Source of the DNA: a virus
Taxonomy: Duplodnaviria; Caudoviricetes
Virus record (IMG/VR): IMGVR_UViG_3300046739_000338
Span: 1-58,209 of that record
Strand: one strand, 5' to 3'
Length of the DNA: 58,209 nucleotides
Shown: piece by piece, positions 1 through 58,209 of the stretch
Position numbering within the stretch: position 1 is the first letter of the stretch
Layout of the letters: each line of letters opens with the position of its first letter
Program-made: the position numbers and the translations under genes
The notes under the pieces: generated by a model
Databases searched by the model: none
What the model was told of the DNA's origin: nothing
The model's input: only the letters and a program-made list of their open reading frames with translations

Positions 1-127
1 CGCCATCGCCGAGAGGCCCAATTCACGGCCAGACAAGACCGTCGACAACACGGCTTCAGGCGTGCCGTAGGCGCTGAACAGGCGCGCCTTGAACAGCAAC
101 TGCGCCAACTGCACGGCCTGGTTCATG
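1..127. repeat. Terminal direct repeat (assembly overlap), copy 1
   Basis: 1-127 is identical to 58083-58209, and a - strand ORF reads through the junction in frame. Confidence 0.97.
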
Positions 128-1140
128 GACTGCGGCTCGAGTTGCCGTTCGTAATCGGCAGTGACTGGCGCCAGTGACAAGCGCGATGCTGGGGCCGGCG
201 AGACGTCTGGTTCGGGCTGCGGTGTGGGAGCTTTGGGTGCGACGCGGCGCGCCACATCGGCCACAAAGGCGCCGAGGGCATCCGTCGCCTGATCGGCCGT
301 CAATTCCTGCTCGATCGTCGGCATCGCTTCGTTGATATCAGTCATGATCGGATCCTCACTATCCGTGGGCACGCGCTCGGTGAGCACGGCGGCTAAGTCA
401 ATCGGCGCATCCTCGCGCAACGTCAACAACGCGCGCACCGTCGGCAGGCGTTCAGCGAAGGCGAGTAAGGCTGTCGCTTGCGCTGGCTTCACGGCGTTCA
501 GCTCGACTCCGGAATGAAGGACGGTATACAAGTCATCCAGATTCCCGAATTGCGCCAGCAACGCCGCGGCTCCCTTGGCTCCGATGCCTTTGACGCCAAC
601 CACGCCGTCGGACGCATCGCCAACCAGCGTCAGATAATCGCGGACCTGATCCGGCGTCACGCCGAACTTCTCCTTCACGGCGGCTGGATCCATCACGTTG
701 CCCGTCACCGGCGACTTCACACTGACGTGCTCCGTCACCAGCTGCAGCAAGTCTTTGTCCGCCGAGACGACCAGCACCGGCCAGGCGCCGACTCTCGCCT
801 GTGCCGTCGCACTCGCAATCACGTCGTCGGCTTCAAAGCCTTCCGCCATCCACTGCGGATAGCCGTCCGTCTTCAGCGTCTCCAGCGCAATCTCGCATTG
901 ATGAAAGAAGGGCGCCGGCTTCGATTCGCGCGCCGCTTTGTACGTCGCGTCCATCTCTTTGCGAAACGACGTCGGCGAATCCAAGCACAAGGCCACGTGC
1001 GGCTGGCCGCTCGCCAGGGCGCGCACCTTCGCGATGATGCCGATGGACGTCGCGTCCGGATTCGGATCATTGCTCGCCATGTGCCAGACAGGATGGGCAA
1101 TGGATGAGAAGTCGATGAGGACGATCGTCGGTTTATTCAC
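1..1140 (-). CDS. N-terminal part of a 5'-3' exonuclease (PIN/FEN + H3TH) fused to a RecT-like annealase; continues across the origin to 57753 (about 489 aa in total)
   Basis: Own translation from GTG 1140: MNKPTIVLIDFSS..FRKEMDATYKAAR..GFEADDVIAS..VVSADKDLLQLV..YLTLVGDASDGVVGVKGIGAKGA (PolA-type 5'-3' exonuclease motifs). No stop before ATG 126 (=58208). Missing from the ORF track because it runs off the window edge. Confidence 0.9.
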   Translation of the reverse strand, partial: MNKPTIVLIDFSSIAHPVWHMASNDPNPDATSIGIIAKVRALASGQPHVALCLDSPTSFRKEMDATYKAARESKPAPFFHQCEIALETLKTDGYPQWMAEGFEADDVIASATAQARVGAWPVLVVSADKDLLQLVTEHVSVKSPVTGNVMDPAAVKEKFGVTPDQVRDYLTLVGDASDGVVGVKGIGAKGAAALLAQFGNLDDLYTVLHSGVELNAVKPAQATALLAFAERLPTVRALLTLREDAPIDLAAVLTERVPTDSEDPIMTDINEAMPTIEQELTADQATDALGAFVADVARRVAPKAPTPQPEPDVSPAPASRLSLAPVTADYERQLEPQSMNQAVQLAQLLFKARLFSAYGTPEAVLSTVLSGRELGLSAMA

Positions 1141-1330
1141 CGTCGGACTCCAAGCTCGCCAGAAACGAATTCAAGCAATTGTCGGAACAGAAGTAGTAAT
1201 CCCCGCGCCGCGTCACGAAGAGAATCGGCTGCGGATGGTCGATGTCGTTCCCGCAGGTATCGCAGATGTGCCACTCGGGCGCGAGGCTGTCGTCCGTCTC
1301 GGCGTCCGGCTGATCGGCAAAGCGGCTCAT
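1133..1330 (-). CDS. Small TRASH/YHS-like metal-binding protein
   Basis: CDTC...YYFCSDNCL; overlaps both neighbours. Confidence 0.65.
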   Translation of the reverse strand: MSRFADQPDAETDDSLAPEWHICDTCGNDIDHPQPILFVTRRGDYYFCSDNCLNSFLASLESDGE

Positions 1331-4185: not shown

Positions 4186-4227
4186 CGGTGTCTATGTGTG
4201 GTAGGTCTCAGCCGTGGAGACGCCCGC

Positions 4228-4491
4228 ATGTTGCGGTTGCGATTCGCGCGCATTCGTTCCACACTAGCCGCCGTGCTGACGAACAAAGAAGCGACGTTGC
4301 AAAGTGTCGTCGAACATCTCGCCGCCGACGTCGCGGCCCTCGAACAAGAAGTCGTCGTCTATCGCGAAATGGTCCAGATCCTGATGGCGCAGAACGCCGA
4401 ACTGCTCAAACAACACGCCGCGCTGCGCCAGCAAATCGCCGACCGCCGCGACGAAATCCAACGCTACGTCGCCACGCAGATGCCCGCGTGA
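4228..4491 (+). CDS. Coiled-coil hypothetical protein
   Basis: GGAG RBS before ATG 4228; heptad-like LAADVAALEQEV..LLKQHAALRQQI. Confidence 0.65.
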   Translation: MLRLRFARIRSTLAAVLTNKEATLQSVVEHLAADVAALEQEVVVYREMVQILMAQNAELLKQHAALRQQIADRRDEIQRYVATQMPA

Positions 4492-5108
4492 CGCCGCTGG
4501 CCATCGACCTCTTCTGTGGCCTGGGCGGCTGGACGGAAGGTCTACTGCGTGCGGGCTATCGCGTCATCGGGTTCGACAACGAGCAGCACATCTACGGTGA
4601 GGCCCGGTATCCCGCGCAGCTCGTGATCCAGGACGTCCTGACGCTGCATGGTTCGCAGTTCAAGGCGGCGGCGCTGATCGTCGCGAGTCCCCCGTGTCAG
4701 GCGTATTCATATCGCGCGATGCCGTGGAAACGGGCGAAGGCCTTACCGACGCCGAGTAATGAACTCTTCGATGCCTGCTTTCGGATTCAGCGGGAAGCCT
4801 GCGAGGCGGCGGGGCATCACATCCCGCTGGTCGTGGAGAACGTCTGCGGGGCGCAGAAGTGGGTGGGGCGCGCACGGTGGCATTACGGGAGCTTCTACTT
4901 GTGGGGTGATGTGCCGGCGCTGATGCCGATGACGCTGAAGGCGATTAAGGGAGACGGGCGGAAACAGAAGGGCAGCGGTGCCGCCTGGTTCGACAACGGC
5001 ATTTGCAAATCAGGCAGCGCGAGTAAGGCTCGCAAAGCCGCCTCCGCGCACATCGCCAAGATCCCGCTGGCCCTCGCCACGCATATCGCCCAGGCGTGGC
5101 ATCCATGA
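4488..5108 (+). CDS. Short C5-cytosine DNA methyltransferase-like protein
   Basis: GTG 4488; DLFCGLGG (motif I), ASPPCQ (IV), VVENV (VI). Confidence 0.8.
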   Translation: MTPLAIDLFCGLGGWTEGLLRAGYRVIGFDNEQHIYGEARYPAQLVIQDVLTLHGSQFKAAALIVASPPCQAYSYRAMPWKRAKALPTPSNELFDACFRIQREACEAAGHHIPLVVENVCGAQKWVGRARWHYGSFYLWGDVPALMPMTLKAIKGDGRKQKGSGAAWFDNGICKSGSASKARKAASAHIAKIPLALATHIAQAWHP

Positions 5109-5497
5109 GCCACGGGCTGCGCTGGACAGAAGAAGAATACGCCGCGTTTCGCCGTCGCATGGATGGCCTCGCACCTCCGCTCCCGCTGCCCTTGCGGCCC
5201 CATGCCCAGCCCTTCGATCGCTTCATGGAGCTCTGCGCCGCGGCCAAGCTCCCCATTCCCGCCCGCGAAGTGCTGTTCCTGGCCGACCGGGATTTCCGCG
5301 CGGATTATTGCTGGCCCCTGCAAAAAATCATCGTCGAACAGCAAGGCTTTCGCGACCATTCGACGCGCAAAGGGCTCCAGCGCGATTACGAAAAAAGCAA
5401 TCTCGCGCAGGCGGCTGGATTCCGTTACTTCCAGTTCACGCCGAAGCAGCTCGCGATGGTCGAGACGATTGAGTGGCTGCGGGGACAACTGACATGA
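5105..5497 (+). CDS. Vsr/DUF559-like PD-(D/E)XK endonuclease
   Basis: RDFRADYCWPLQKIIVEQQG...RDYEKSNLAQAAGFRYFQFT. Confidence 0.75.
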   Translation: MSHGLRWTEEEYAAFRRRMDGLAPPLPLPLRPHAQPFDRFMELCAAAKLPIPAREVLFLADRDFRADYCWPLQKIIVEQQGFRDHSTRKGLQRDYEKSNLAQAAGFRYFQFTPKQLAMVETIEWLRGQLT

Positions 5498-6207
5498 CGC
5501 CGTATTACGACCATGCCGGGATTCAAATTTTCCACGGCGATTGCCGCGACGTCCTCGAAGAGTGGGAAGGCCTCCGCACCCAGAGCTTTGATCTGCTCCT
5601 GACAGACCCACCGTATGGGATCGGCGAGGCGAGAGGAAAGAACGCAAGCAGGGGCCAGCTAGCTCAGGCGACCGATTGGGGCATCAGCGATTGGGACGAT
5701 ATCCCGCAGGTGGAAGGCGTTGCCCGCGCGAGAGCAGTCAGCCGCTATCACATCATTTTCGGGGGGAATTACTATACGCTACCGCCCACATCGTGCTGGT
5801 TGGTCTGGGACAAAGATAACGGCGACACAGACTTCTCGGATTGCGAATTGGCATGGACGAATCTGCGGAAGGCCGTGCGGAAGCTCACCTATCGCTGGAA
5901 TGGCATGTTGCAAGCTCCTGGTTGTCCCAAGGAGCTACGATTACACCCGACCATAAAGCCTGAGCCGGTCATGCGCTGGGCGTTGATGCAAGCCCCGCCA
6001 GGCGTGCGGACGGTGCTCGATCCCTTTATGGGCAGCGGCACGACGCTGGTCGCGGCCAAACGCCTCGGCCGGCAGTGCGTCGGCATTGAACGCGAAGAAC
6101 GCTATTGCGAGGTCGCCGCCAAGCGTCTCGCGCAAGACGTCCTGCCGTTTGCGGACGACACCGTAGCAAACGAACGGACGCAGATGCCGTTGAGTTTGGT
6201 AGAGTAG
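5494..6207 (+). CDS. N6-adenine/N4-cytosine DNA methyltransferase (beta class)
   Basis: LTDPPYG precedes HPTIKP and VLDPFMGSGTT. Confidence 0.92.
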   Translation: MTPYYDHAGIQIFHGDCRDVLEEWEGLRTQSFDLLLTDPPYGIGEARGKNASRGQLAQATDWGISDWDDIPQVEGVARARAVSRYHIIFGGNYYTLPPTSCWLVWDKDNGDTDFSDCELAWTNLRKAVRKLTYRWNGMLQAPGCPKELRLHPTIKPEPVMRWALMQAPPGVRTVLDPFMGSGTTLVAAKRLGRQCVGIEREERYCEVAAKRLAQDVLPFADDTVANERTQMPLSLVE

Positions 6208-6302
6208 TGTCGGCGGGCGCCCGGCCAGGCCCCTGTCGCGTCGTGCTTATCTCACGACACGAGCCCGCCGCTTCTCTCACACCTAGATAAGAGGTGCTTC
6301 CC

Positions 6303-7487
6303 ATGAGTGATACTTCCTGGCACGTTCACCTGGACAAATCCGAGCGCGGCTTCCGTCCCACACTCAGTAATGCCGTCGCCGTCCTTCAACACGATCCAGC
6401 CTATGGCCCAGACGTTCTCTGGTATGACGAATTCCTCGATCGCGTCCTCACCCGCATCAATGGCGATGCCCCACGTGAGTGGCGCGACGATGACGACTAT
6501 CGCCTCACCGTCTACATGCAACAAACCATCGGCATCCCGTCCCTCTCGGATATCATCGTCGCCAAAGCCGTCAAGTATGTCGCCCATCAACGCGTGAAGC
6601 ATGTCGTCCGCGATTGGGTGCTGCCACTCCCGTGGGATGGCATCGACCGGGTGGACCATGCCTTCGAAGATTATTGGGGTGTCGACTGCAATGAGACGAT
6701 GCCCTGCGAATATGTCCGCGCCGCCAGTCGCAATCTCTTTCTCGGGATGGTGGCGCGCATCCTGCGGCCTGGCTGTCAACTCGATACGATGGTCGTCTTC
6801 GAAGGCGCCCAAGGCATCGGCAAAACCTCCGCCCTCCGCGTCCTCGGCGGACCGTGGTACGCCCTCGCCCATGAATCCGTCACCCGGAAGGATTTCTTCG
6901 AAGCCCTCCAAGGCAAGTGGGTCATCGAAATCGGCGAACTCGACGCCTTCAGTCGCGCCGAAGTCACCCGCGTCAAAACCGTCATCAGCACGCCGAGTGA
7001 CCGCTTCCGCGCCAGTTACGGCCACCGCGCGAATGACCATCCCCGGCAGTGCATCTTCGCCGGCACGACCAACCACGACGGCTGGGGGGCCGACGAAACG
7101 GGCCTCCGACGGTTTTGGCCCATTCGCTGCGGCGACGTGAACCTCGACGCGCTCGTCGCCTCACGGGATCAACTCTTCGCCGAAGCCCGCATCCTGGTGC
7201 TGGCCGGCGCGGAATGGTGGACGATGCCAGGCATGACACAGGCCATCCAAGCGGACCGCCAAGCCGACGATGCCTGGACCGACCTCATCTTCGCCGGCCT
7301 CGGCCTCGACACCGAAATCACCGTCGCCGAAATCCTCATCCGTATCCTCAAATTCGACGCCGCCCAAATTAACCGTGGTGACGAACTCAGGGTAGGACGA
7401 ATCCTCAGATTAGCGGGGTGGACGAAGAAAAACCTGACCAGAAATCGAAAACAAGCCAAAAGATGGGTAGCACCAGAAAATGGGTAG
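6303..7487 (+). CDS. VapE/virulence-associated-E family P-loop ATPase (replicative helicase-like)
   Basis: GAQGIGKTS Walker A, WVIEIGEL, FAGTTN, DETGLRRFWPI, RDQLFAEA. Confidence 0.88.
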   Translation: MSDTSWHVHLDKSERGFRPTLSNAVAVLQHDPAYGPDVLWYDEFLDRVLTRINGDAPREWRDDDDYRLTVYMQQTIGIPSLSDIIVAKAVKYVAHQRVKHVVRDWVLPLPWDGIDRVDHAFEDYWGVDCNETMPCEYVRAASRNLFLGMVARILRPGCQLDTMVVFEGAQGIGKTSALRVLGGPWYALAHESVTRKDFFEALQGKWVIEIGELDAFSRAEVTRVKTVISTPSDRFRASYGHRANDHPRQCIFAGTTNHDGWGADETGLRRFWPIRCGDVNLDALVASRDQLFAEARILVLAGAEWWTMPGMTQAIQADRQADDAWTDLIFAGLGLDTEITVAEILIRILKFDAAQINRGDELRVGRILRLAGWTKKNLTRNRKQAKRWVAPENG

Positions 7488-14559: not shown

Positions 14560-14907
14560 ATGAAGCTCGTGATCCGTCTCCTCGATGGTGACGGCAAGCT
14601 CCTCGGCTGGACCGAGCACGCGCCGCTGCTGCTCGGCGACGGCACGCTGCGGGCGTCCTCGAACATCGTGATTCCGGTCGACGAGGCGGGCGTCACCGCG
14701 TTCGTCTCGACGCACTGGTGCGACGTGAACGTCGAGACGCGCGTCCATGCGGGCACGTTCACTGTCGTCCCCGGCGCCCAGTTCGCCTGGGCGCGCTACA
14801 AGGACATGCTCGTGGTGTGCGGGCAGATGCCGGTCAACTTGCCGCCCGTGACGGTGAAGAGCCACACGGTGATCGCGGTCCCCGTCGGGTCGATGGTGAG
14901 TGGCTGA
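14560..14907 (+). CDS. Hypothetical protein
   Basis: MKLVIRLLDGDGKLLGW; coupled to the next gene. Confidence 0.55.
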   Translation: MKLVIRLLDGDGKLLGWTEHAPLLLGDGTLRASSNIVIPVDEAGVTAFVSTHWCDVNVETRVHAGTFTVVPGAQFAWARYKDMLVVCGQMPVNLPPVTVKSHTVIAVPVGSMVSG

Positions 14908-15662
14908 TGCCGAGGGTCAAGATCCAGAATCGCCTCGGCCTCTTGACGCCCGTCTATCCGAGCGGGCTCAAGAGTCATTGGGTGGCGTTCGACCGGGCCG
15001 GCGCGCCGAACTCCGCACTGCAGTGCTACAGGCCGGGGAACGTGACGGTCAAGGACAGCAACCTGATCCTGACGGCGCAGGTGGAGACGTGCACGTGTGC
15101 CAGCTTCGACCTAGCGAGCGCGAGCTACAGCTATTCGTCGGGCTACGTGGCGATGAACGGGTTCAACTTCCAATATGGTGAGATCGAGGCGCGCATCAAG
15201 TTCGGAGGGGCGCAAAGCTCGGGCTGCTGGCCGGTCTTCTGGATGGAGAATGCCAACTGCCAGGCGAGCGATCCGACGGGGACCGACGACACGTGCACGG
15301 GCGAAGAGATCGACATCGCGGAGATCCTGAGCAGCGACTATACGCTGATCAACCAGCAGATGCACGTCGGCGCGCACAACGACCAGAACCTGCAGTCCGG
15401 CATCAGCGATCCGGCTGGCACGTATCACGTCTACCGCCTTGAATGGTCGGCCGGGCAGATGATCTGGAAGATCGACGGGGCGACGACGTTCACCGTGACG
15501 CAAGCCTACATTCCCGCGCTGCCGATGTACGCGAAGTTCATGTACAACGTCGGCTATCAGAACGGTGCGGTGGTCAATGGGTCGCTGCCGTGGCAGATGA
15601 TGATCGACTACGTGACGGTGACACAGAGTGGCGTCACCGTCTTCGGGGATGATTTCACCTAA
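14907..15662 (+). CDS. Glycoside hydrolase family 16 protein
   Basis: FQYGEIEARIK, WPVFW, catalytic EIDIAE, YHVYRLEW, MMIDYV. Confidence 0.9.
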   Translation: MPRVKIQNRLGLLTPVYPSGLKSHWVAFDRAGAPNSALQCYRPGNVTVKDSNLILTAQVETCTCASFDLASASYSYSSGYVAMNGFNFQYGEIEARIKFGGAQSSGCWPVFWMENANCQASDPTGTDDTCTGEEIDIAEILSSDYTLINQQMHVGAHNDQNLQSGISDPAGTYHVYRLEWSAGQMIWKIDGATTFTVTQAYIPALPMYAKFMYNVGYQNGAVVNGSLPWQMMIDYVTVTQSGVTVFGDDFT

Positions 15663-16903
15663 TGGCGACGACCTTCCTCGAGCCCGGGACGGATGCGACC
15701 CAGGACTTCAGTCTGTGGGGCAATAGCACATCCGTCGATCTCACGGGTGCTCTCACATCGGCCACAGACCAGGCGCATACCGGCACGCGATCGATTAAAT
15801 CGTCGGTCGGCTCAAATACCGGCACGCTGGCCCAAGCCTATACCGGGGATGGGATTTTCTCCGATGCGGGCGGCCGCTTCTCGATCTGGATTCGGCTCAA
15901 CGCCATTCCGGCCACTAATAAAACGGCCATCCTCTGGGTCGGCCAATCCGGGTTTGGCAGTGCGGTCTTTGCGATTGGAGTGGATACGGCCGGGAAAGTG
16001 ACGGTCGGGAATGAAGGCGGCGCGGGCATTCTCGGCACGGGCACGACGGTCGTGAGCGACGCCACATGGACGCGCATTAGTGCGGCGTATGTCATCACCA
16101 GCACGACCAATTGGACGTATAAGCAATGGGTGAACGGCGTGCTGGACTTGACGCTGACAAACTCGCCCACACTGACCACGGTGACATCGGGCGAATTGTG
16201 GGTCGGAGCCTCGCCAGCCTCCAGTGCTGGATTTTCGTTGTGCGAGGCGAATCTGATCGTCTGGGTGGACGATATTTACTGCGACGACTCCAACGCGCTC
16301 ACGGATCCTGGCGACATCCGTGTGACGGCGAAGCGTCCGATCGCGAACGGCACGACGAACGGGTTCACGACGCAGATCGGATCGGGCGGATCAGGAACGG
16401 GCACGGGTCACAGCCCGCAGGTCAACGAGCAGCCGCTGAGCCAGACGAACGGCTGGTCGATGGTTGGCGCGGGGTCGGCGGTGACGGAAGAGTATAACGT
16501 CCAAAGTCTCTCGGCTGGCGATGTCGACCTCACGGGTCAAACGATCGTTGATTGGATGGGCTGGGCGTTCGCGAAGGCGCTGGCGTCTGAGACAGCCTCG
16601 ATCGTCGTCGGGGGTGTGTCGTCGAATATCGCTCTGACCAGCACGCCGACGGCGTTTCAAAAGGCGAAAGGCTCGACGACATATCCGGCCGGCAGCGGTA
16701 CGGATATCGGCATCATCACGAGCACAACGGTGACGACTGTGAGCCTATATGAGTGCGGCGTGCTCATCGCATATACGCCTTCGACGGTGGTCGCAATCGC
16801 GACGCCCGCAGGCGCTGCGAAGTTCGCTGGCCAGGCGCCGTGGTCGTTGGTCGAGGACACCTACGTGCCGCATCTCATCATCAAGAATCGGCTGGCGCCC
16901 TGA
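15662..16903 (+). CDS. Concanavalin/LamG-like lectin-domain structural protein
   Basis: WTRISAAY..QWVNGVL..VWVDDIYCDD; T/G/S-rich. Confidence 0.65.
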   Translation: MATTFLEPGTDATQDFSLWGNSTSVDLTGALTSATDQAHTGTRSIKSSVGSNTGTLAQAYTGDGIFSDAGGRFSIWIRLNAIPATNKTAILWVGQSGFGSAVFAIGVDTAGKVTVGNEGGAGILGTGTTVVSDATWTRISAAYVITSTTNWTYKQWVNGVLDLTLTNSPTLTTVTSGELWVGASPASSAGFSLCEANLIVWVDDIYCDDSNALTDPGDIRVTAKRPIANGTTNGFTTQIGSGGSGTGTGHSPQVNEQPLSQTNGWSMVGAGSAVTEEYNVQSLSAGDVDLTGQTIVDWMGWAFAKALASETASIVVGGVSSNIALTSTPTAFQKAKGSTTYPAGSGTDIGIITSTTVTTVSLYECGVLIAYTPSTVVAIATPAGAAKFAGQAPWSLVEDTYVPHLIIKNRLAP

Positions 16904-17643
16904 TGGCCATTGCCTTCGTGAGCCAGATTGCGGCATCCGGCGCGAATACCTTTACGTCTGGCACGCTTGACACGTCTGGTGCTGATCTCCTTGTCGTGGT
17001 CGTAACCGAGGGCACCGCGGGCGCCGTCACGCTGTCCGACAGCAAATCGAACACGTGGAACCCACTCACCGAACAGAGCGCGGTGGCTCCAGCGTGCGTC
17101 ATCTACTATGCCAAAGCCGCTGGCAAGACGGGCACCGGGCACACGTTCACGGCGACGGGGTCGAGCATCTTCTGCGTGCTCAACGTGATGGCGTTCAGCG
17201 GCAGCGACGCGACGGCTCCGTTCGATCAACAGAATGGAGCCGGCGGCGGATCATTCACGAGCACGGCCGCGCCAGGCAGCATCACGCCGACGGTCGACAA
17301 TGAACTCATCATCTCTGGCTTCGCGTGGAACGCGTCGCTGACGATCACGAGTGTGACGGGTGCGACGGCGTTCTATCAGACGAACTATTCGGGCGGCGCG
17401 AACTACGGCGGCGGCGGCGCCTACGCGATGCAGACGACGGCGACGGCCGCCAATGACGCGTGGAACTTCACGGGCACCATTGCCGGCAACATCGTGACGG
17501 CGTCGTTCAAGGCCGCGAGCGGCGGTTCTATTTCGATTGCGACGCCCGCCGGCGTCTCGCAGTTTATCGGCAAAATCCCTGAGATGGTCGTCAGCGACCA
17601 GTACGCCGCTCACGTGAACATCAAGAATCGGCTGGCGCCCTGA
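16903..17643 (+). CDS. Beta-rich structural protein
   Basis: MAIAFVSQ..DTSGADLLVVVV..SDSKSNTW; C-terminus shared with the previous gene. Confidence 0.65.
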   Translation: MAIAFVSQIAASGANTFTSGTLDTSGADLLVVVVTEGTAGAVTLSDSKSNTWNPLTEQSAVAPACVIYYAKAAGKTGTGHTFTATGSSIFCVLNVMAFSGSDATAPFDQQNGAGGGSFTSTAAPGSITPTVDNELIISGFAWNASLTITSVTGATAFYQTNYSGGANYGGGGAYAMQTTATAANDAWNFTGTIAGNIVTASFKAASGGSISIATPAGVSQFIGKIPEMVVSDQYAAHVNIKNRLAP

Positions 17644-20183
17644 TGGCGATGACGCTGACGTGCCGGGGCACGATCTTCCTCACCACGGCGCAGTCGTCCT
17701 ACACGACGACGCAGACGGCGTATACGCCCGCCGCGCATTCACTGCTCATCGTCGCGGTCAACAACTCGCTGGCCTCGACGCCGCTTGATCCGACCGGCGT
17801 CACGGGGCATGGCGTGACGTTCAGCAAGATCACGCTCGGCACGCGCATCTATGGATCGACGAACTGCATGTCGATCTGGGTCGCGGACTCGGGTGCCGCG
17901 CCATCGAGCACGAAGGTCGTCGCGGACTGGGGTGGCGTGAATCAGACGGGCGCCTGCGTCATTGAGTATGAAGTGACGGGCGCCGACCTGAGCGTGTCGG
18001 CGACGGCGGCCATCGTACAGAAGCCGACGGGGACGAACACGACCGGGACGGGCACCTTGACGTTTGCCGCGCGCGGCAATCCAGCCAACTGCCAGATGTC
18101 ATTTTGGGGGCATGGCCAGAACGAGGCCACGACACCGCGCGCCAGCTGGGTCGAAGACAGCACGATCGCCTCGGATGGCAACTACAACACGCCCGCGACG
18201 GCGCTCGAGGGCCAATACCGCAACGACGGGACGTTCGACACGACGTCGACGGCCACCTGGACGACGACGACCGTGCCGTGGTTGGGCGTTGGATTAGAGA
18301 TTCAGGCGGCACTCGTGACGGCCGTCGGCGTGTTGACGCTCGCTGGGCAAGTCATCTCAGCGGGCCTCGGCGTCTTGGCGACGACTGGCGCACTGCTCTT
18401 CGCTGGACAAGCCCCGACGGTCGTCATGCCGGTGGTCCTCTCGCCGCCAGCGGCTTCCCTGAACCTCGTCGGCCAGTACCTGACGGTGCAGTTTCTTGGT
18501 GCATCGAACGGCGTCCTCACGTTCGCCGGGCAAGTGCCCACGGTCGCGGTCGGCGGGCCGGTCAACATCGCTGTCCCGAACGGCGTCCTCACGTTCGCCG
18601 GACAAATCCCGTCGATTCCAGGCGCCGGCACGATTCCCGTGCCGGTCGGCTCGTTGCTCTTCACCGGGCAGTATCCAGGCATCGCGACCCTCGGCCCACC
18701 GCGCGGATCGTTGGTGTTCGCGGGGCAAGTGCCAACGGTCGTGGCGGGTGGGCCTGGCACGAACATTCCCGTGCCTCAGGGCGTCCTCGCGTTTGTTGGG
18801 CAGACTCCCTCACAGGGTCTTGGTAACGCGACACCATCTGGCTTGGTGTTCTTCGCTGGCACGTGGGTCTCGGTCCAGTTCAACGATCCGGCGCCAGGTG
18901 TCCTGACGTTTGCTGGGCAAGTCCCGTCGCTGCAGTTCAATTTCTTCATTGCGCCGCCGAGCGGTGTGCTCACGTTTGCGGGGCAGTCGCCATCACTAGC
19001 GACGACCGACGCCATCCCATCCGGGATCTTGACGCTCGCCGGTACGCTTCCGACGACTGGACTCGGCAACGCCACGCCTGTCGGGTCGTTGTTGTTTGCG
19101 GGCCAGGTGCCGACGGCGAGCGTGGCTGGGCAACTCACAATCCCCACGCCTGCCGGCGCGTTGCTGTTGGCCGGACAGGTGCCTGTCGATGGCCTCGGGA
19201 ATGCCATGCCAGCCGGCGCATTGCTCTTTGCCGGACAAGTTCCGACGCTGAGCCTCGGCGGCGGCGCAACGACGATCGCCATTCCTGCTGGCCTCCTGAC
19301 ATTCGCAGGACAGACACCCACAGATGGGTTGGGCGTTGGCACGCCCAACGGCATCCTGACGTTCGTCGGGCAAGCGCCGTCCCTTGGGGGCACGGGCAAC
19401 ATCAGCACGCCGGCTGGTGCGCTGGTCTTCAGTGGTCAGGTTCCGGCAGAACTCACCGGAGAAGGTGTCCCAGTCGGCGCGCTGCTCTTTGCAGGCCAGA
19501 TCCCTGCGCTGCAGTTCAACTTCGTCATCAGCACGCCTGCAGGAGCGTTGCTCTTCGCTGGTCAAGTGCCGACGCCGGTCTTCACCGGCGGCATCGCGCC
19601 GCCGACGGGCGCCGTGCTCTTCGCCGGGCAGACGCCGACGCTCAACTTCACCTATACGCTCGCGGTGCCGTCCGGCGTATTGACCCTTGCGGGCCAGCTG
19701 CCGTCGACGAACCTCGGCGTGGCGACTCCAGCGGGAGCCCTCCTCCTGGCCGGCAAGATTCCGGCGACGGGCGCGGGCATCGCGCCTCCCAGCGGAGTGC
19801 TGACATTTGCGGGGCAAACGCCTGCACTTTCCGCGCCCGTCGTCGTGCCGATTCCGGCCGGTGTGCTGCTCCTGGCTGGACAGCCACCCTCTATCTCAGG
19901 ACTCGCACGCATACCGGCCGGTGCCGTGCTCTTCGCAGGGCAGACGCCGAGCCTGCAGTTCGCCATCAGCCCGCCCTCAGGTGCGCTGCTATTCGCAGGC
20001 AAGGCGCCGAACGTCAAGTCTGATTACTTTATCGTCGTGCCGACCGGCGCGCTCGTCTTCGCGGGCCTGCGCACGGGCGGGCGGTTCCCGGATGACATGC
20101 TGATCGCGAGCCAGTCGATCGTCGAGCAGAAACGCACTGAGTCGATCGTCGAGCAGCAGCGCACGGAGACCTATACGCTATGA
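17643..20183 (+). CDS. Repeat-rich fibre/scaffold protein (about 28 GxLxFAGQxP repeats)
   Basis: About 220-aa head, then 28 counted repeats of roughly 20-25 aa. Confidence 0.8.
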   Translation: MAMTLTCRGTIFLTTAQSSYTTTQTAYTPAAHSLLIVAVNNSLASTPLDPTGVTGHGVTFSKITLGTRIYGSTNCMSIWVADSGAAPSSTKVVADWGGVNQTGACVIEYEVTGADLSVSATAAIVQKPTGTNTTGTGTLTFAARGNPANCQMSFWGHGQNEATTPRASWVEDSTIASDGNYNTPATALEGQYRNDGTFDTTSTATWTTTTVPWLGVGLEIQAALVTAVGVLTLAGQVISAGLGVLATTGALLFAGQAPTVVMPVVLSPPAASLNLVGQYLTVQFLGASNGVLTFAGQVPTVAVGGPVNIAVPNGVLTFAGQIPSIPGAGTIPVPVGSLLFTGQYPGIATLGPPRGSLVFAGQVPTVVAGGPGTNIPVPQGVLAFVGQTPSQGLGNATPSGLVFFAGTWVSVQFNDPAPGVLTFAGQVPSLQFNFFIAPPSGVLTFAGQSPSLATTDAIPSGILTLAGTLPTTGLGNATPVGSLLFAGQVPTASVAGQLTIPTPAGALLLAGQVPVDGLGNAMPAGALLFAGQVPTLSLGGGATTIAIPAGLLTFAGQTPTDGLGVGTPNGILTFVGQAPSLGGTGNISTPAGALVFSGQVPAELTGEGVPVGALLFAGQIPALQFNFVISTPAGALLFAGQVPTPVFTGGIAPPTGAVLFAGQTPTLNFTYTLAVPSGVLTLAGQLPSTNLGVATPAGALLLAGKIPATGAGIAPPSGVLTFAGQTPALSAPVVVPIPAGVLLLAGQPPSISGLARIPAGAVLFAGQTPSLQFAISPPSGALLFAGKAPNVKSDYFIVVPTGALVFAGLRTGGRFPDDMLIASQSIVEQKRTESIVEQQRTETYTL

Positions 20184-32400: not shown

Positions 32401-33159
32401 ATGATCACTATCGCCTTGACGTACTTCAAGAGTCTGACGCTCGTCAACCTGATGGCGGCGCTCTATTCGGTGCGTCGGCAGGACTTCTCGCAGGTTGAAG
32501 AACTGGTCGTCGTCGACAACGATACGGCGGACGACCCTGAGCAGATTCGGTACCTCGTCGCGTCGTTCAACTTTCCCGTGCACGTGCGCGTCGTGTCGCA
32601 CAAGCACGGCGACCGGACGCTCGCGCAGGCGTGGTCGACGAACCAGACCGTGCGGCTGGCCGATACCGAATGGGTCTTTTATACGCGGGCTGACTACTTG
32701 CTCGATTTCGATATGCTGGCGAAGTTCGCGGCCATCGTCGCCAGCAAGCCGATCGGGTGGGATGGGTTCATCGTCAGCCACGGGTGTCATCTCGGAGAGG
32801 ACATCACCGGAGTCGAGCAATATCCGTGGCGGGACCATGGCACGCGCGTCCTGAAGGGCATCGTCTACGACTATACGGAGATCGACTCCGGCGTCTGGAT
32901 GGCACGACGCGGCACCTACGACCGCATCGGTGGATTCGACGAGCGGTTGTCGGCGTGGGGACACGCGCAGACCGAGTTCCAATACCGCATGCACCTCGCG
33001 GGCGTCGAGTTCGTGCGCGTGCCAGAGACGCTCTTTTATCATCCCGGTCACGGCGGCGACAAGGACATGGGGCTGGCGAATCAGCAATTGGCCGTCGTCG
33101 GGACGGACCTGAAGGTCATGTGGGCGCGCTACCACGGCGAGTCGCCCTATGGCCGCTAG
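32401..33159 (+). CDS. Glycosyltransferase, GT2-like
   Basis: ELVVVDND, IGGFDERLSAWGH, FYHPGH. Confidence 0.85.
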   Translation: MITIALTYFKSLTLVNLMAALYSVRRQDFSQVEELVVVDNDTADDPEQIRYLVASFNFPVHVRVVSHKHGDRTLAQAWSTNQTVRLADTEWVFYTRADYLLDFDMLAKFAAIVASKPIGWDGFIVSHGCHLGEDITGVEQYPWRDHGTRVLKGIVYDYTEIDSGVWMARRGTYDRIGGFDERLSAWGHAQTEFQYRMHLAGVEFVRVPETLFYHPGHGGDKDMGLANQQLAVVGTDLKVMWARYHGESPYGR

Positions 33160-33850
33160 GCCCTATACGCGCTCGCTGCACCCTGAGGACTACGAGTTCT
33201 TGCCGCAGACGCAACCGCTGCGGTTGTTCGAGCGCGACATGACGCTCTTCAAGGTTCCGCACCGCGAGTGGCACGAGCACCGCTTCTGGGAGTATGCGTC
33301 GATCCTGCAGCAACTCGACGAACTGCACGTGCCGTCGGACGCCGAGATGGTCGACGTCGGAGCTGGGGCGAGCTTCTTCGACCCGTACTGCGCGATTCGC
33401 TTCGAGCGCCTCTGCTGCGTCGACAACATGCTCTATGGCGACATCGCGCCGATGGTCGACGCGCAGCGCCGTCATTACGGCGTGCCGCTGCCGCTCTACG
33501 ACATGCCGCTCGAAAACATGGCGACGTTTATCAGTAATACGTTCGACGTGACGCTGTGCATCAGCACGATCGAGCACGCGACCGACCACGACGCGGCGTT
33601 TAACGAGCTGGTGCGGATTACGAAGCCGGGAGGGTATCTCTTTCTTACGTCTGATTATTTCCGAGACCTGCAGCACTTCGAGCAGTCGGTGTCGCGCGTC
33701 TATCAGGTGACGCCCTATACGCAGGAGTTCGTGCTCGACCTGCCGAACCGGTTCCCCGTGAAGTTCGTCGGCAAGACGGATCTCGACTATCGCGGAGACT
33801 TCGTTCACAACTACTCGTTCTGCAACGTCTGCCTGAGGAAGTTATGGTAA
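33149..33850 (+). CDS. SAM-dependent methyltransferase
   Basis: MVDVGAGAS, FDVTLCISTIEH, RITKPGG. Confidence 0.88.
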   Translation: MAARPYTRSLHPEDYEFLPQTQPLRLFERDMTLFKVPHREWHEHRFWEYASILQQLDELHVPSDAEMVDVGAGASFFDPYCAIRFERLCCVDNMLYGDIAPMVDAQRRHYGVPLPLYDMPLENMATFISNTFDVTLCISTIEHATDHDAAFNELVRITKPGGYLFLTSDYFRDLQHFEQSVSRVYQVTPYTQEFVLDLPNRFPVKFVGKTDLDYRGDFVHNYSFCNVCLRKLW

Positions 33851-35073
33851 CCGAACGAGTGTGTCGCGCGTGCGGTCGGTCGCTCGTCTCGATGCTGAAC
33901 CTCGGCAACCTGGCACTGTCGGGATTCCCTGTTGGCGGCGAGGTGCCAGAGTTCGCGCCGCTCGACTTCTGCCATTGCTCATCGTGCGGCCTCGTGCAGC
34001 TGCGGCACACGGTCGAGCCAGACGTCCTGTTCAAACAGTATTGGTACAAGAGCGGCGTCAACGAGACGATGCGCGCCGAGCTGCACGACGTCATGCTCGA
34101 TGGGGTCGACCAGCTTGGGCACCTCGAAGAAGGCGACGTCATTGTCGACGTCGGGGCGAACGACGGGACGCTGCTCGCCTGGGCACCGAGGGGCGTGAAG
34201 CGCATCGCCTACGAACCGGCCGAGAACCTGCAGGAGAGCCTACGCAAGCACTGCGACGTACTGCATCCGGAATACTTCCCTGGCACGCAGCCGTTGGAGC
34301 CTGGCAGCGTGTCGTTGTTGACCTCGATCGCGTGCTTCTATGCGGTCGACGACCCAATCAAGTTCGTCAGCGCCGTGAACGACGCGCTGTCGGCGCGAGG
34401 CATCTGGGTGCTGCAGTTTCAGGACTTGCACCAGATGCTGATGGCGACGGCGTTCGACGACATCTGCCATGAGCACCTCTTCTACCCGAGCCTCGCGTCG
34501 ATCGCGCGGATGATCGAGCCGTTCGACTTGGAGATCATCGACGCCGAGCGCCGCGAGATCAACGGTGGGAGCCTGCGCGTGACGGTCGGCCGGCGCTGGC
34601 GGCACGTCTCGCCACACGTCAAGGCGATGACGATTGCCGAGTATCGCTGCGAGCACTTCATGACGCTGCGCGACTTCGCGCAACGGTTGCTGAAGACGCG
34701 CGAGAAGATCTACCAGGCACTCGACACGCAGCGTGGGCCGATCGACCTCTACGGTGCCTCGACGAAGGGCAACACGCTGCTGCAAGTCTGCGACCTCGGG
34801 CCGAAAGACATCCGCCAGGCCTGGGAGCGGTCGCCCGAGAAGTGGGGCCGGCAGACGATCACCGGTATCCCGATCGTCAGCGAAGAAGCAGGGCGCGCCG
34901 ACCCGCCGGCCATGCTCGTCGTCGGCATTTGGCAGTTCCGCGACGCGATCCTCCAGCGTGAAAAAGCGTATCTGGCGCAGGGGGGAAAGTTATTGTTCCC
35001 GCTGCCGAGAGTTGAGGTCATTGATGGTCTTCACCAAGGTGTCGGTGCTCATTCCCACACGGCATCGGCTTGA
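33844..35073 (+). CDS. NDP-sugar C-methyltransferase
   Basis: CRACG/CSSCGLVQL zinc site, VDVGANDGTLL, FDDICHEH, INGGSLR, YGASTKGNTLL. Confidence 0.9.
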   Translation: MVTERVCRACGRSLVSMLNLGNLALSGFPVGGEVPEFAPLDFCHCSSCGLVQLRHTVEPDVLFKQYWYKSGVNETMRAELHDVMLDGVDQLGHLEEGDVIVDVGANDGTLLAWAPRGVKRIAYEPAENLQESLRKHCDVLHPEYFPGTQPLEPGSVSLLTSIACFYAVDDPIKFVSAVNDALSARGIWVLQFQDLHQMLMATAFDDICHEHLFYPSLASIARMIEPFDLEIIDAERREINGGSLRVTVGRRWRHVSPHVKAMTIAEYRCEHFMTLRDFAQRLLKTREKIYQALDTQRGPIDLYGASTKGNTLLQVCDLGPKDIRQAWERSPEKWGRQTITGIPIVSEEAGRADPPAMLVVGIWQFRDAILQREKAYLAQGGKLLFPLPRVEVIDGLHQGVGAHSHTASA

Positions 35074-35695
35074 AAGGCTGGGGCAAGTGATTGCGTCGTA
35101 CCTGCAGACGGTCAACGTGGACCATGAGCATTCGGAGCTGGCCTTTCGCGTCGACGACGACGACGTCGAGACGCAACGCTACCTCGGGCGCGTCTCAGAC
35201 GAGGCGGTCGTGCCCTGCCGCGTCGTCGTTGGGCCGCGCAAGAAGGGCTACGCGAGCCTGGGCGATTTCTTCAACGAACTCTATGCGGCGTCGGATGGCG
35301 ACGTGCTGATGTGCGGCAACGACGACATGGTCTTTCAGACGTTCGGCTGGGACGAGAAGATCCTCGACGAGGCGAACCGCTATCCGGACGGCATCTTCGA
35401 CTTTGGCGTGGCGACGCACAACGAAGCGAACTTTCCGTTTGCGACCGTCTCGCGCAGCATGTGCGACCGACTGGGGTTCTTCTTTGACCCGCGTATGTTC
35501 TGGGGCGACATCTTTTGGCGGGACGTCACGTCACGATTCGGGCGGGCCATCGCGCTCGCCGACATTCGGATCGACCACGACTGGGCGGGCTTCGCGCCAG
35601 ATGAGGTGTTTCTCGAGGGTGAGCCGACGCGCCGGGCCGACCACCTGGCGTTTCACGCGCAGGCGGTGAACGAAGCCGTGGAGAAGCTGAAGTGA
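35024..35695 (+). CDS. Glycosyltransferase, GT2-like
   Basis: VSVLIPTRHR, VDDDD, CGNDDM. Confidence 0.8.
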   Translation: MVFTKVSVLIPTRHRLERLGQVIASYLQTVNVDHEHSELAFRVDDDDVETQRYLGRVSDEAVVPCRVVVGPRKKGYASLGDFFNELYAASDGDVLMCGNDDMVFQTFGWDEKILDEANRYPDGIFDFGVATHNEANFPFATVSRSMCDRLGFFFDPRMFWGDIFWRDVTSRFGRAIALADIRIDHDWAGFAPDEVFLEGEPTRRADHLAFHAQAVNEAVEKLK

Positions 35696-36342
35696 AACCC
35701 ATCTATGTGTGCGTCCCGGTCCTCAGGCGCTACGACCTGCTCCGGCAGATGCTCATATCACTGGAGCCGAGCACCGTCGAGCCGTCGGGCGTCTACGTCA
35801 TCGACAACGGGCGCAACGCCGAGCGGGTGAAGGCGGCGACCGACAGGTGCCCATTCCCCGTCGTCATCTGGACGCCCGAGGAGCCGATGGGCATCGCGGA
35901 GTCGTGGAACTGGTTCCTGGACCACGCGCCAGAGGAGCGTCTCATCACGAACGATGACATCGTCTTCGCGCCCGAGTCGCTCGAAGCGTTCGGCAAGACG
36001 ACGACCGACATCTGCTGGTCGCGCGAGGCGGGCTTCTCGTGCTTCATCATCCGCGACAGCTGCGTGAAGAAGATCGGCTACTTCGACGAGTCGATCTCGC
36101 CTGGCTACGCCTACTTCGAGGACGAGGACTACGCGCAGCGGATCAACCGGAAGGGCAAGGGGCCGGAGTTCGCGACCTCCGGCGATTGCGTCTCTGGCCT
36201 GGAGCACTTGCACAGCCAGACGATCTCGGTGGCGTCGCCAGATGAGCTCGAGGACCACCATCGTCGGTTCTGGGTCGCGCGCTACAACTACGTCATGAAG
36301 TGGGACCTGCAGAAGGAGTTCAACATGGACAAGAACCTATGA
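35692..36342 (+). CDS. Glycosyltransferase, GT2-like
   Basis: YVIDNG, TNDDI, IGYFDE, YFEDEDY. Confidence 0.85.
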   Translation: MKPIYVCVPVLRRYDLLRQMLISLEPSTVEPSGVYVIDNGRNAERVKAATDRCPFPVVIWTPEEPMGIAESWNWFLDHAPEERLITNDDIVFAPESLEAFGKTTTDICWSREAGFSCFIIRDSCVKKIGYFDESISPGYAYFEDEDYAQRINRKGKGPEFATSGDCVSGLEHLHSQTISVASPDELEDHHRRFWVARYNYVMKWDLQKEFNMDKNL

Positions 36343-36869
36343 TCACGTTTCTGGTGCCGACCATCGGTCGTCCCTCGCTGCTGCACACGCTGCGGTCGAT
36401 CGAGACGTTGCCGGGCGACGAAATCCTCGTCGTCGGCGGTGTCAATCCGATGTGCACCGATCCGCGCGTGCGGTGCATCCCATGCAAGCCGGGTGGAGAT
36501 TGGGGACACGCCGAGCGCAACTACGCGTCACCGATGGCAAAAGGCCAGTACATCGCGCACATCGACGACGACGACGTCTACTCGCCAGGGACGAGGGCGT
36601 TGATGCAGGACGCCATCGAGAAGACGCCGGGCTTGCCCATCTTGTTTCGCATGCAGTATCCGAACGGGTATCGGCTCTGGCAAGAGGAGAAAGTCTATTG
36701 CGGGAATGTTGGGACGCCGATGTTCTTGATCCCGAACCAACCCGAGAAGTGTGGGACGTGGGGATCGTTCGTCGGCGGGGACTGCTCGTTCTTGGAAACA
36801 AGCAAGTGGGCGGCGGAGGACTACGTGTGGCGGCCAGAGGTCACGGTGCTGTTGGGGCACAACGTATGA
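36339..36869 (+). CDS. Glycosyltransferase, GT2-like (short)
   Basis: VPTIGRPSL, GHAERN, AHIDDDD. Confidence 0.82.
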   Translation: MITFLVPTIGRPSLLHTLRSIETLPGDEILVVGGVNPMCTDPRVRCIPCKPGGDWGHAERNYASPMAKGQYIAHIDDDDVYSPGTRALMQDAIEKTPGLPILFRMQYPNGYRLWQEEKVYCGNVGTPMFLIPNQPEKCGTWGSFVGGDCSFLETSKWAAEDYVWRPEVTVLLGHNV

Positions 36870-37099
36870 TCATCGGCTTCAACAAACCAGCAGGCATCGG
36901 CATGATCGCGCGCATCGACATCGTGAATGGTGACGAGATTTACCAAAATGTTCCAGTCATGATTCTTCGAGAAGCAACGGTTGAAGAATGGCTGGCGGAT
37001 GCGGTAGACCGCTACGGCGAACAGAAAGGGAGGGCTGTATTAGCAGAACGATTATCTCAGTTTCCAGGTGCTGTGTTTTACGACGTGAGCATTGATTAG
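36866..37099 (+). CDS. Small hypothetical protein (AT-richer insert)
   Basis: ATGA overlap; ILREATVEEW. Confidence 0.5.
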   Translation: MIIGFNKPAGIGMIARIDIVNGDEIYQNVPVMILREATVEEWLADAVDRYGEQKGRAVLAERLSQFPGAVFYDVSID

Positions 37100-37115
37100 C
37101 GTGGGGCTAATGACT

Positions 37116-48754: not shown

Positions 48755-49302
48755 TGGCTTGGTCGATTCCCCGCTCATGGATCCCCGGCGAAATCGCCAC
48801 GGCGGTGATGATGAACGCCAACGTGCGCGACAATCAGAACGCGCTGCTGGCCCTCTTCACACCGTGGGTCGACGTGTCGTTCGATCCGTTGGACTTTACG
48901 GCGGACGATGGACTCGGTGGAGGGGGAGCCTCTTGGACGCAATCGACGTTGAGCATCACGCACAACGCGTACTTCGTCGTGCAGAACACGTTGTTCTGGT
49001 CGTTCGGCTGTAATGGCTCATTCTGCTCGGGCGGGTCTGGTAATGACCAAATCCTATTCTTGTTCATCCGACAACCGACGCGACTGACCCGCAATTTCGC
49101 CACGAGTGAGCAGATCGGATTGGTCAGCTATCTGAACTGCCAAGGACAGATTGCTGGCGTCAACATGGCCGAGTGGATCTGCCGCCCGATCTCAGGCGCA
49201 CAACTGCGTATGGAGCCGAACAACAGCATCCCGTTTACAGCGACGCACGGCTTCAACAACCCGCTGACGCTGTACTTCAATGTCTTTATGTGGATTATAT
49301 GA
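48754..49302 (+). CDS. Putative receptor-binding/minor tail protein, paralog 3
   Basis: AWSIPRSWIPGE..MNANVRDN. Confidence 0.7.
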   Translation: MAWSIPRSWIPGEIATAVMMNANVRDNQNALLALFTPWVDVSFDPLDFTADDGLGGGGASWTQSTLSITHNAYFVVQNTLFWSFGCNGSFCSGGSGNDQILFLFIRQPTRLTRNFATSEQIGLVSYLNCQGQIAGVNMAEWICRPISGAQLRMEPNNSIPFTATHGFNNPLTLYFNVFMWII

Positions 49303-55399: not shown

Positions 55400-55586
55400 A
55401 CACATCATCCGCGCGCGGCCCCTTGGCCCCGGACGCGTCCTCGAATTCGACTTCCTGCCCGACGGTCAGCACTTCAAACCGGACGTTCTTGCAGACCGTC
55501 TTGTGCGCGAAATAGTCCTTTCCATCCTGACCTTTGATGAAGAAAAATCCTTTCTCGAGGTGCAACGACTTCACGGTGCCGGTCAT
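55389..55586 (-). CDS. csp: Cold-shock domain protein
   Basis: GAAGGAG RBS; MTGTVK..KGFFFI..DYFAH..GQEVEF..KGPRADDV. Confidence 0.92.
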   Translation of the reverse strand: MTGTVKSLHLEKGFFFIKGQDGKDYFAHKTVCKNVRFEVLTVGQEVEFEDASGAKGPRADDVYVV

Positions 55587-57342: not shown

Positions 57343-57753
57343 TCACCACTTGATCTGCTCCTCATCGACCATCGGCTCGGCTGTCTTCGGCTGATAGCCA
57401 CTGCGGATTCGCGCCGCCCAGGCACGAGCGCGCGCCGCATCCAGCTCGTTGTAATGCTTCTTCGTTGGGTCCGCTTCCTTGCCGGCGAAGTAATCCAGCC
57501 GTGCCGCGACCAGATCCAAGTAGTCCGGTGGGCACTCGCTCATGTGGCGCCCTGTCATGTCCGGCCCGGTCCAGTCCTTCGGACTCTTGGCCTTGATGAG
57601 CGGGTCGCCATACTTGCTGTCAAGGTCGACGTGCAGCGCCACGTCATCGGTCGGTTTCGGCGTGGCGGCGCGCTTCGACTTCGACAGTGCCAACAGGGCT
57701 TTCAGCGTGGCATCGATGCTTTTGAGTAGGGCAATGTCGATGGAATCAGACAT
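57343..57753 (-). CDS. Hypothetical protein coupled to the recombinase, with an acidic-aromatic C-terminal tail
   Basis: TAATG overlap with the recombinase stop; ends DEEQIKW, reminiscent of an SSB C-tail. Confidence 0.65.
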   Translation of the reverse strand: MSDSIDIALLKSIDATLKALLALSKSKRAATPKPTDDVALHVDLDSKYGDPLIKAKSPKDWTGPDMTGRHMSECPPDYLDLVAARLDYFAGKEADPTKKHYNELDAARARAWAARIRSGYQPKTAEPMVDEEQIKW

Positions 57754-58209
57754 TAGAACTCCTCTGGCGAATACAACCCAGCGACCACATCCGGATAGAC
57801 CAACCGCGCCAGCTTCGAGGATGCTCGCGCGACCAACATGTCCGATGGATTCTTCGTCCAGCTGCCGCCATTCTTCACGAGGCCAGCCGCTTGCGCTTCT
57901 TCAATCGTGTACCGCAGTTCCATCGGTTCTTCGCCTTCGCGCGTCGTCGTGAACGTCGCCGCCGACGCCGTGCGCTCGGTGCACCGGAACGTCTTCGCCT
58001 TGCCAGATTTCAGCACCAAGGCTCGGAGGGCATCCGCCGCCATCGTGGGTTTGCCTTCGACCACGTGAAACGCGCGCAGGCTCGCCATCGCCGAGAGGCC
58101 CAATTCACGGCCAGACAAGACCGTCGACAACACGGCTTCAGGCGTGCCGTAGGCGCTGAACAGGCGCGCCTTGAACAGCAACTGCGCCAACTGCACGGCC
58201 TGGTTCATG
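57753..58209 (-). CDS. RecT/Red-beta-like annealase domain (C-terminal part of the fusion starting at 1140)
   Basis: GRELGLSAMASL..HVVEGKP..WTKNPSDMLVARA..LARLVYPDVVAGLYSPEE. Confidence 0.85.
   Translation of the reverse strand, partial: MNQAVQLAQLLFKARLFSAYGTPEAVLSTVLSGRELGLSAMASLRAFHVVEGKPTMAADALRALVLKSGKAKTFRCTERTASAATFTTTREGEEPMELRYTIEEAQAAGLVKNGGSWTKNPSDMLVARASSKLARLVYPDVVAGLYSPEEF
58083..58209. repeat. Terminal direct repeat (assembly overlap), copy 2
   Basis: Identical to 1-127. Confidence 0.97.

Follow-up and report, generated by a model that had tools for sequence, protein, structure and literature searches.

A conserved family of phage proteins joining a FEN-type 5' nuclease to a predicted RecT-type annealase core in one chain

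The virus record IMGVR_UViG_3300046739_000338 (Duplodnaviria; Caudoviricetes), analyzed over its whole length of 58,209 nucleotides and hereafter called the window, encodes a protein of 489 amino acids (aa) that combines a PolA/FEN-type 5'-3' exonuclease and a RecT-like annealase core on a single polypeptide. We consider it probable that this fusion acts as a recombinase with exonuclease and annealase in a single chain, a covalent tether standing in for the usual docking domain. Judged by sequence, the fusion is no singleton and represents a large conserved family. The parts of the gene lie in the window as follows.

361..1140, minus strand: PolA/FEN-type 5'-3' exonuclease / flap endonuclease domain, residues 1-260, assigned by Pfam, PHROG, Foldseek and motifs.
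142..360, minus strand: linker, residues 261-333, Ala/Pro/Glu-rich and mostly disordered, with a predicted helix at residues 282-299.
1..141, minus strand: start of the annealase core, residues 334-380, beginning at a conserved ...ERQLEP... motif; bases 1-127 are a repeat copy.
57753..58082, minus strand: rest of the annealase core, residues 381-489, and the stop codon; it ends a few residues past the core, without a C-terminal domain.
58083..58209, no strand assigned: second copy of the terminal direct repeat, 127 bases, which encodes residues 339-380 again and marks circular assembly.

The gene runs across the ends of the record. Bases 1-127 are identical to bases 58083-58209, the longest terminal overlap is 127 bases, the record is annotated as carrying direct terminal repeats, and dropping one copy gives a circle of 58082 bases. 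If 127 is, as we presume, the largest k-mer that a common metagenome assembler uses by default, the repeat is the usual signature of a circular assembly path and no physical terminal repeat. On the minus strand, one piece of 380 aa has its GTG start at 1140 and leaves the record at base 1, a second of 151 aa extends from 58208 to a stop at 57753-57755, and the two share 42 residues within the repeat. Joined on the circle (1140..1, then 58082..57753, with the GTG start and the 57753-57755 stop), they form a single open reading frame (ORF) of 489 aa, exactly the frame of about 489 aa that a first-pass annotation of the window had described. The product is the same as the database protein P0121 at all residues except for the notation of the start codon, and differs from P0001 at one further residue. 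P0121 is itself 489 aa long and is present with an unbroken frame on six contigs, the longest of 58251 bases.

A stop codon or misassembly within 127-480, which by the terms of the first-pass annotation would have refuted the fusion, appeared neither in 19 related viral loci nor in contigs of other sequencing runs. The frame is complete in 16 of these loci and truncated in the other three by the end of the contig, with a stop between the two domains in none of the 19. Positions 1-1400 are tiled without indels by contigs of four other soil/rhizosphere runs, of which none is flagged as a potential source of the window DNA, among them a 2197-base contig that spans place 127 and extends 1817 bases past window base 1. 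Variants in these four runs are spaced in threes and fall on third codon positions of the fusion frame, the pattern expected for a gene under purifying selection. Because the frame is unbroken in the database protein, in the related loci and in the contigs of other runs, the fusion ORF is genuine and not an artifact of circularization.

By profile, motifs and predicted fold, residues 1-260 belong to the FEN family, of the type found at the N terminus of bacterial PolA. In an HMM (hidden Markov model) scan, both exonuclease domains scored well above their cut-offs (Pfam 5_3_exonuc_N, PF02739, E 1.2e-29, 103.5 bits versus 34.3; 5_3_exonuc, PF01367, E 4.7e-20, 72.3 bits versus 40). PHROG 107 'exonuclease' was matched at 8.8e-34, and the N-terminal part of NCBIfam DNA polymerase I models matched the same residues. 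A full-length AlphaFold (AF2) model reached a mean pLDDT (predicted local distance difference test) of 87. The best Foldseek matches of its nuclease were E. coli ExoIX, M. smegmatis FenA, a plastid exonuclease, T5 FEN and Taq Pol I; the match to ExoIX (3zdb) had an E of 6e-18 and a target template-modeling score (TM) of 0.88, and T4 RNase H and FEN1 were also matched.

We aligned 92 full-length family members, 48-95% identical to the window protein, all 92 of which match both Pfam exonuclease domains. Residues D10, E103, D105, D106, D128, D130, D175, D178, Y67, K68 and R71 are invariant in this alignment, and D54 is conserved in at least 90% of it. The conserved residues align with the YKAGR, EADD, ADKDL and GDxSD motifs of the Taq Pol I 5' nuclease, which we take to hold the metal-binding and substrate-binding residues of the FEN family. 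Since these Taq-equivalent motifs are conserved, the nuclease domain looks catalytically intact. The PolA/FEN-type exonuclease of the first-pass annotation is thus borne out by Pfam, NCBIfam, Foldseek and the Taq motifs alike.

The C-terminal domain (residues 334-489) is predicted to have the RecT/Redbeta-type annealase fold, a Rad52-like single-strand annealing protein (SSAP) fold. Modeled alone, the annealase part reached a pLDDT of 90. Among 350,542 chains, Foldseek placed the Redbeta N-terminal domain on DNA (7ujl, query TM 0.61) first and the Listeria phage RecT on DNA (LiRecT, 7ub2, query TM 0.58) second. VIA-align gave Z 9.3 over 131 residues for 7ujl and Z 7.2 over 130 residues for 7ub2, followed by Rad52, Mgm101 and Sak at Z ~5-6. 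Both structural comparisons thus agree with the RecT-like domain of the first-pass annotation. By profile, the domain matched PHROG 561 (3.3e-23) and PHROG 4171 (5.3e-20), both 'RecT-like ssDNA annealing protein' (ssDNA, single-stranded DNA); a sequence search of solved structures with the C-terminal piece returned only a chance-level match (E 0.32). GRELG, R383, F412 and T423 are conserved across the 92 aligned members, and just ahead of and at the start of the core E331, L334 and P336 are invariant or nearly so (alignment A2). The C-terminal domain or tail that typically follows the core in RecT/Redbeta proteins is missing. We read this as a variant feature that does not exclude the protein from the group, because the tail differs among members of the family and the Pfam model does not include it.

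Between the two domains lies the proline-rich linker noted in the first-pass annotation: the string APKAPTPQPEPDVSPAP is present in the translated 380-aa piece, within a region rich in Ala, Pro and Glu. AF2 gave a pLDDT below 50 at residues 262-268, 273-277 and 302-332. Across 200 complete fusions the linker measures 37-202 aa (median 70), with the frame kept in all of them.

Searches for homologs showed how common this arrangement is. Of 8000 candidates scored in a word-indexed search with the 380-aa piece, 1006 proteins matched at E <= 0.001; 114 of the 120 listed matches, 450-568 aa long, cover at least 98% of the query, hence the linker and the start of the annealase. A precomputed Pfam RecT match was already attached to 13 of these 120 proteins. 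With the 151-aa annealase piece as query, an exhaustive HMMER search yielded 20,920 representatives at E <= 0.001, 176 of them at E <= 1e-30. We classed the best 150 with two HMMs built from the family alignment. Both domains were present in 110, so that the family, clustered at 50% identity, comprises no fewer than 110 clusters. Another 15 were free-standing annealases with a short N terminus and 76-239 residues after the core, 12 of them matching Pfam RecT at E <= 0.001. The other 25 had little or no C-terminal extension (22 with an N-terminal extension of 26-169 residues, and three short pieces with hardly any). We rejected the proteins carrying only an N-terminal extension as a split form of the system, and did not count them as such, because several begin inside the last helices of the FEN domain and are plainly fragments of fusions.

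The fused and free-standing forms differ at their C termini: all 110 fusions end no more than 35 residues past the core, most of them within 5. In a FastTree phylogeny of the annealase core (150 rows), three changes between fused and free-standing states are needed, of which well-supported branches force only one, a result compatible with one origin of the fusion as well as with several; the 24 rows extended at the N terminus alone are dispersed among the fusions.

Family members are labeled in their sources '5'-3' exonuclease' or 'DNA polymerase-1'. Among 50,697 deposited phage records, a set outside which the records nearest the window may lie, 88 matched the 380-aa piece and none covered 80% or more of it; these matches are FEN domains only, at ~30% identity. 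A scan of representative prokaryote genomes with the family alignment was dominated by polymerase I genes and hence gives no reading on prophage copies; among the 80 loci listed, matches reach only to about query residue 333, at 31-44% identity. In a search of full-text literature, whose coverage ended short of subscription journals and supplementary files, we found no description of a natural FEN-RecT fusion, and a 2023 structural review of annealing proteins uses none of the words 'fusion', 'fused' and 'FEN'. Altogether, the family is large and seems to have gone unremarked, its members carrying only generic exonuclease or polymerase labels.

Homologs of the annealase core in isolated phages are separate genes. 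These homologs, annotated by their depositors as RecT-like annealing proteins, lie downstream of a nuclease gene in all three phages that we examined.

Thermobifida phage P1312 (gp78): homolog directly after 'exodeoxyribonuclease VIII'.
Propionibacterium phage B22 (gp40): homolog directly after a PD-(D/E)XK nuclease.
Gordonia phage Adora (gp56): homolog after a RecE-like exonuclease, with one HNH gene between.

The fusion keeps the same order, exonuclease and then annealase. Because the nearest unfused homologs follow nuclease genes, the FEN domain holds the place of the resection nuclease. Such free-standing RecT-like annealases, from actinophages and Salinibacter phages, are homologous to the fusion core (30-36% identity over 96-100% coverage). 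They are proteins of 253-339 aa with a C-terminal extension, encoded as a separate gene after a RecE-like or PD-(D/E)XK nuclease gene, whereas the fusion has neither the extension nor the separate nuclease gene. This agrees with the premise of the first-pass annotation that the two activities normally reside in separate proteins and that the nuclease is of the lambda-exo/RecE type. Since the free-standing relatives pair with RecE-like or PD-(D/E)XK nucleases, a FEN partner in the same chain is a departure. In its domains and in this departure the first-pass interpretation stood; it had missed the size of the family, the loss of the tail and the downstream gene with an SSB-like tail described below (SSB, single-stranded DNA-binding protein).

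The closest known systems are lambda Red (Exo and Beta) and Rac RecE/RecT (SynExo / EATR pairs). Like the fusion, they co-encode a 5'-3' nuclease with an annealase of RecT/Redbeta fold, exonuclease first in RecE/RecT-type operons, and the predicted fold of the fusion's core is that of Redbeta residues 1-177 and LiRecT. They differ from it in consisting of two proteins, in a nuclease of ring-forming PD-(D/E)XK fold in contrast to the FEN/PIN-like fold of the fusion, and in the Redbeta C-terminal domain, which is absent from the fusion annealase. Because of the single chain and the FEN-type nuclease, we regard the fusion as a variant that probably works like Red/RecET and not as a member of that group. 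FEN-family viral nucleases are also known in recombination: T7 gene 6 exonuclease works with gp2.5, and the FEN1-like G5 nuclease of poxviruses reportedly takes part in recombination. T5 D15, the T5 FEN, is among the fold matches of the fusion nuclease. These viruses encode the nuclease apart from its annealing partner, which belongs outside the RecT/Redbeta family, in contrast to the single chain of the fusion.

What the lost tail does in Redbeta suggests why a tether might replace it. According to the part of the 2023 review that deals with this domain, the Redbeta C-terminal domain binds both lambda Exo and the last ~9 residues of the host SSB through overlapping sites, and the contact between Redbeta and SSB is required in vivo. 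In the fusion, the N-terminal FEN-type nuclease would act at an end, a nick or a flap in the DNA and strip the 5' strand there, and the flexible tether of 37-202 residues would hold the RecT-type core beside the emerging 3' single strand. The core would then load on this strand, oligomerize and anneal it to a complementary strand. The covalent link would do the job of the C-terminal docking domain of free-standing annealases, which would account for the missing domain. We favor this picture of resection followed by annealing because of the fusion itself, the loss of the tail, the position of the nuclease in the place of RecE and the lack of any other resection nuclease detected in the window. 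The ORFs scanned there (6 + 26 with Pfam, 5 + 51 with PHROGs) yielded neither another 5'-3' exonuclease nor a nuclease of the lambda-Exo/RecE/Cas4 type, and no match to a DNA polymerase or an SSB family.

These analyses establish the identities of the domains, the conserved catalytic motifs, the fold of the annealase and the loss of its tail, as well as the conservation of both the fusion and its neighbor; we infer nuclease activity on duplex ends, annealing, the coupling of the two and the role of the neighbor. Several observations weigh against a resecting recombinase. The 5' nucleases of the PolA type are structure-specific, and on blunt duplex ends they show little of the processivity of lambda Exo and RecE, which are ring-shaped. 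The Pfam RecT model (PF03837) matches the window protein at E 5.5e-5 with 23.2 bits, 0.8 bit under the cut-off of 24, and only 28 of the 92 family members match it at E <= 0.001. The AF2 model (predicted TM 0.57) shows no fixed contact between nuclease and annealase. Finally, ORF calling was crude, and a divergent second nuclease could have been missed.

The order of events could also be the reverse, an alternative that we judge unlikely though it deserves a hearing. The RecT core would anneal first at a fork or gap, and the tethered FEN would then cut the displaced 5' flap and leave a ligatable nick, so that the nuclease finishes the reaction and ties the protein to lagging-strand or recombination-dependent replication. 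By sequence and fold, the nuclease most resembles the domains with which bacterial DNA polymerase I, ExoIX and FenA process flaps, and the window encodes a VapE-like primase/helicase with no detected polymerase, which points to host replication, where flap processing matters. This account leaves unexplained both the loss of the tail in fused annealases and the nuclease's occupation of a RecE-like gene position. Flap trimming and resection are compatible with each other, and the T7 gene 6 exonuclease performs both.

Considerably less probable is that the C-terminal domain is a mere ssDNA anchor for a nuclease that degrades DNA, in host chromosome breakdown or nucleotide scavenging. T7 gene 6, a FEN-family phage nuclease, does take part in the breakdown of host DNA, and we only infer that the fusion family anneals. 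Yet GRELG, R383, F412 and T423 are kept in all 92 members, the full Redbeta/RecT fold is predicted to be present, and the nearest free-standing relatives sit in classical exonuclease-annealase gene pairs. An anchoring role fits poorly because a simple anchor would not need the conserved motifs, the fold or the gene pairing. We dismiss an artifact of assembly or circularization, or a sequencing error merging two genes, as having a negligible chance: in the window the ORF is obtained only by joining contig ends, but the identical 489-aa protein comes from other contigs, no stop separates the domains in any of the 19 related loci, the frame is kept in each of the 200 complete fusions across linkers of 37-202 aa, and the contigs of four other runs, one of which crosses place 127, are free of indels.

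Next to the proposed single-chain recombinase, a small conserved gene is probably a third component of the module, as suggested by its sequence conservation and position.

57343..57753, minus strand: 136-aa gene downstream of the fusion; its ATG shares one base with the fusion stop codon, and its acidic tail ends in QIKW.

A homolog of this gene directly follows the fusion gene in all 13 close loci, and one is also present in all five further loci, three of which have fusions 55-67% identical to P0055, a protein ~48% identical to the window protein (L003-L015, L097, L098, L100, L101 and L106 together). We found 165 homologs of the neighbor among 302 candidates, none with a Pfam domain. The neighbor itself gave no Pfam match at E <= 0.1, DUF669 and SSB included, and no PHROG match; its profile reached a best E of 0.38 against solved structures by sequence, and an ESM Atlas search returned only viral clusters without names. 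In an alignment of 71 members, W61, G63, S72, L79, R110, W112 and G119 are invariant, and an acidic C-terminal tail closes with an aromatic residue; many relatives end in DIPF. The tails of the 120 listed homologs are distributed as follows, each line giving a separate count.

Ending in F or W: 92 of 120.
Ending in [ILMV]-x-[FW]: 66 of 120.
Ending in [DE]-[ILMV]-[PS]-[FW]: 32 of 120.
Ending exactly in DIPF: 21 of 120.

DDDIPF is described, in the part of PMC5872125 that bears on it, as the conserved tip of bacterial SSB, which recruits the partner proteins of SSB. Part of a 2026 paper reports the same tip on prophage DUF669 proteins encoded beside Sak4 annealases. Sak4 with SSB and 'Healer' (a DUF669 protein with Sak4), as far as these sources describe them, resemble the fusion locus in having a small protein with an SSB tip beside an annealase gene; unlike the DUF669 partner in Healer, the 136-aa neighbor lacks a DUF669 or SSB match at E <= 0.1. 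To judge from its sequence features, the neighbor may bind ssDNA as an SSB of unconventional type, act as a mediator, or serve as an adaptor, decoy or mimic toward host SSB-binding proteins. A complex prediction of the fusion with the neighbor gave 0.00 in both runs, a result that speaks neither for nor against binding.

We tentatively suggest, as a possibility short of an even chance, that the locus encodes a three-part module made of a tethered FEN, a tail-less RecT core and a small protein with an SSB tip, in which the tether and the small protein took over exonuclease docking and the link to SSB or the replisome. If so, such a module might have far less need to match the host SSB than Red or RecET, and would then constitute a naturally portable, compact recombineering system and an unrecognized evolutionary route for phage recombinases. 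Phage exonuclease-annealase pairs are the basis of recombineering, and the 2023 review, in the part on this topic, attributes the limits of recombineering in a new host to the contacts of the annealase with its exonuclease and with the host SSB. The family offers a natural experiment in which a docking contact has given way to a peptide tether, a PD-(D/E)XK ring to a monomeric FEN, and a companion with an SSB-like tip has been added. An active fusion would provide a one-gene or two-gene recombination tool, with possible use in compact genome editing, and would allow a test of whether tethering can substitute for processivity and docking.

The window is a siphovirus-like genome whose plus strand carries the genes for terminase, portal, capsid and tail, and the fusion lies in a leftward early operon. 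The GTG start of the fusion at 1140 overlaps the stop of the gene upstream by 8 bases.

1133..1330, minus strand: TRASH/zf-FCS zinc-finger gene, 65 aa, upstream in the leftward operon of the fusion (Pfam Arc_trans_TRASH, 9.9e-8).

A TRASH gene is found upstream of the fusion in 10 of the 13 close loci. The same operon holds a cold-shock-domain protein and an HNH endonuclease (55389-55610 and 56832-57233, both on the minus strand), and HNH genes also lie near the fusion in the distant loci L098 and L106. No Gam-like gene was recognized. At 4188-7487 on the plus strand, genes similar to C-5 cytosine and N6/N4 DNA methylases adjoin the VapE-like primase/helicase. Because no DNA polymerase was detected in the scanned ORFs, the phage probably relies on host replication.

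Several features of the plus-strand modules are less usual. At 14718-16903, between terminase and portal, a protein with a glycosyl hydrolase family 16 domain and another of laminin-G/concanavalin-like type occupy an unusual place and may have depolymerase or receptor-binding functions. At least three glycosyltransferase-like genes (32401-33159, 35692-36342 and 37092-38321) and a methyltransferase-like gene (33149-33850) form a cluster at 32401-38321, inside the virion module between head-tail adaptor and connector genes, that may glycosylate the virion. The large plus-strand ORFs 17643-20183 (846 aa), 40475-44011 (1178 aa), 44012-47359 (1115 aa) and 49173-51404 (743 aa) have no PHROG match at E <= 0.001; 17643-20183 and 49173-51404, the only two of the four scanned with Pfam, have no Pfam match either. 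Their positions make it probable that two of these four ORFs encode the tape measure and a tail protein.

Sequence nearly identical to positions 1-1400 is present in many soil and rhizosphere metagenomes, with 15 runs holding at least half of the sampled words and no RNA run among the sequencing runs listed, and variants that co-occur over this stretch differ mostly at third codon positions. The phage lineage is widespread in soils.

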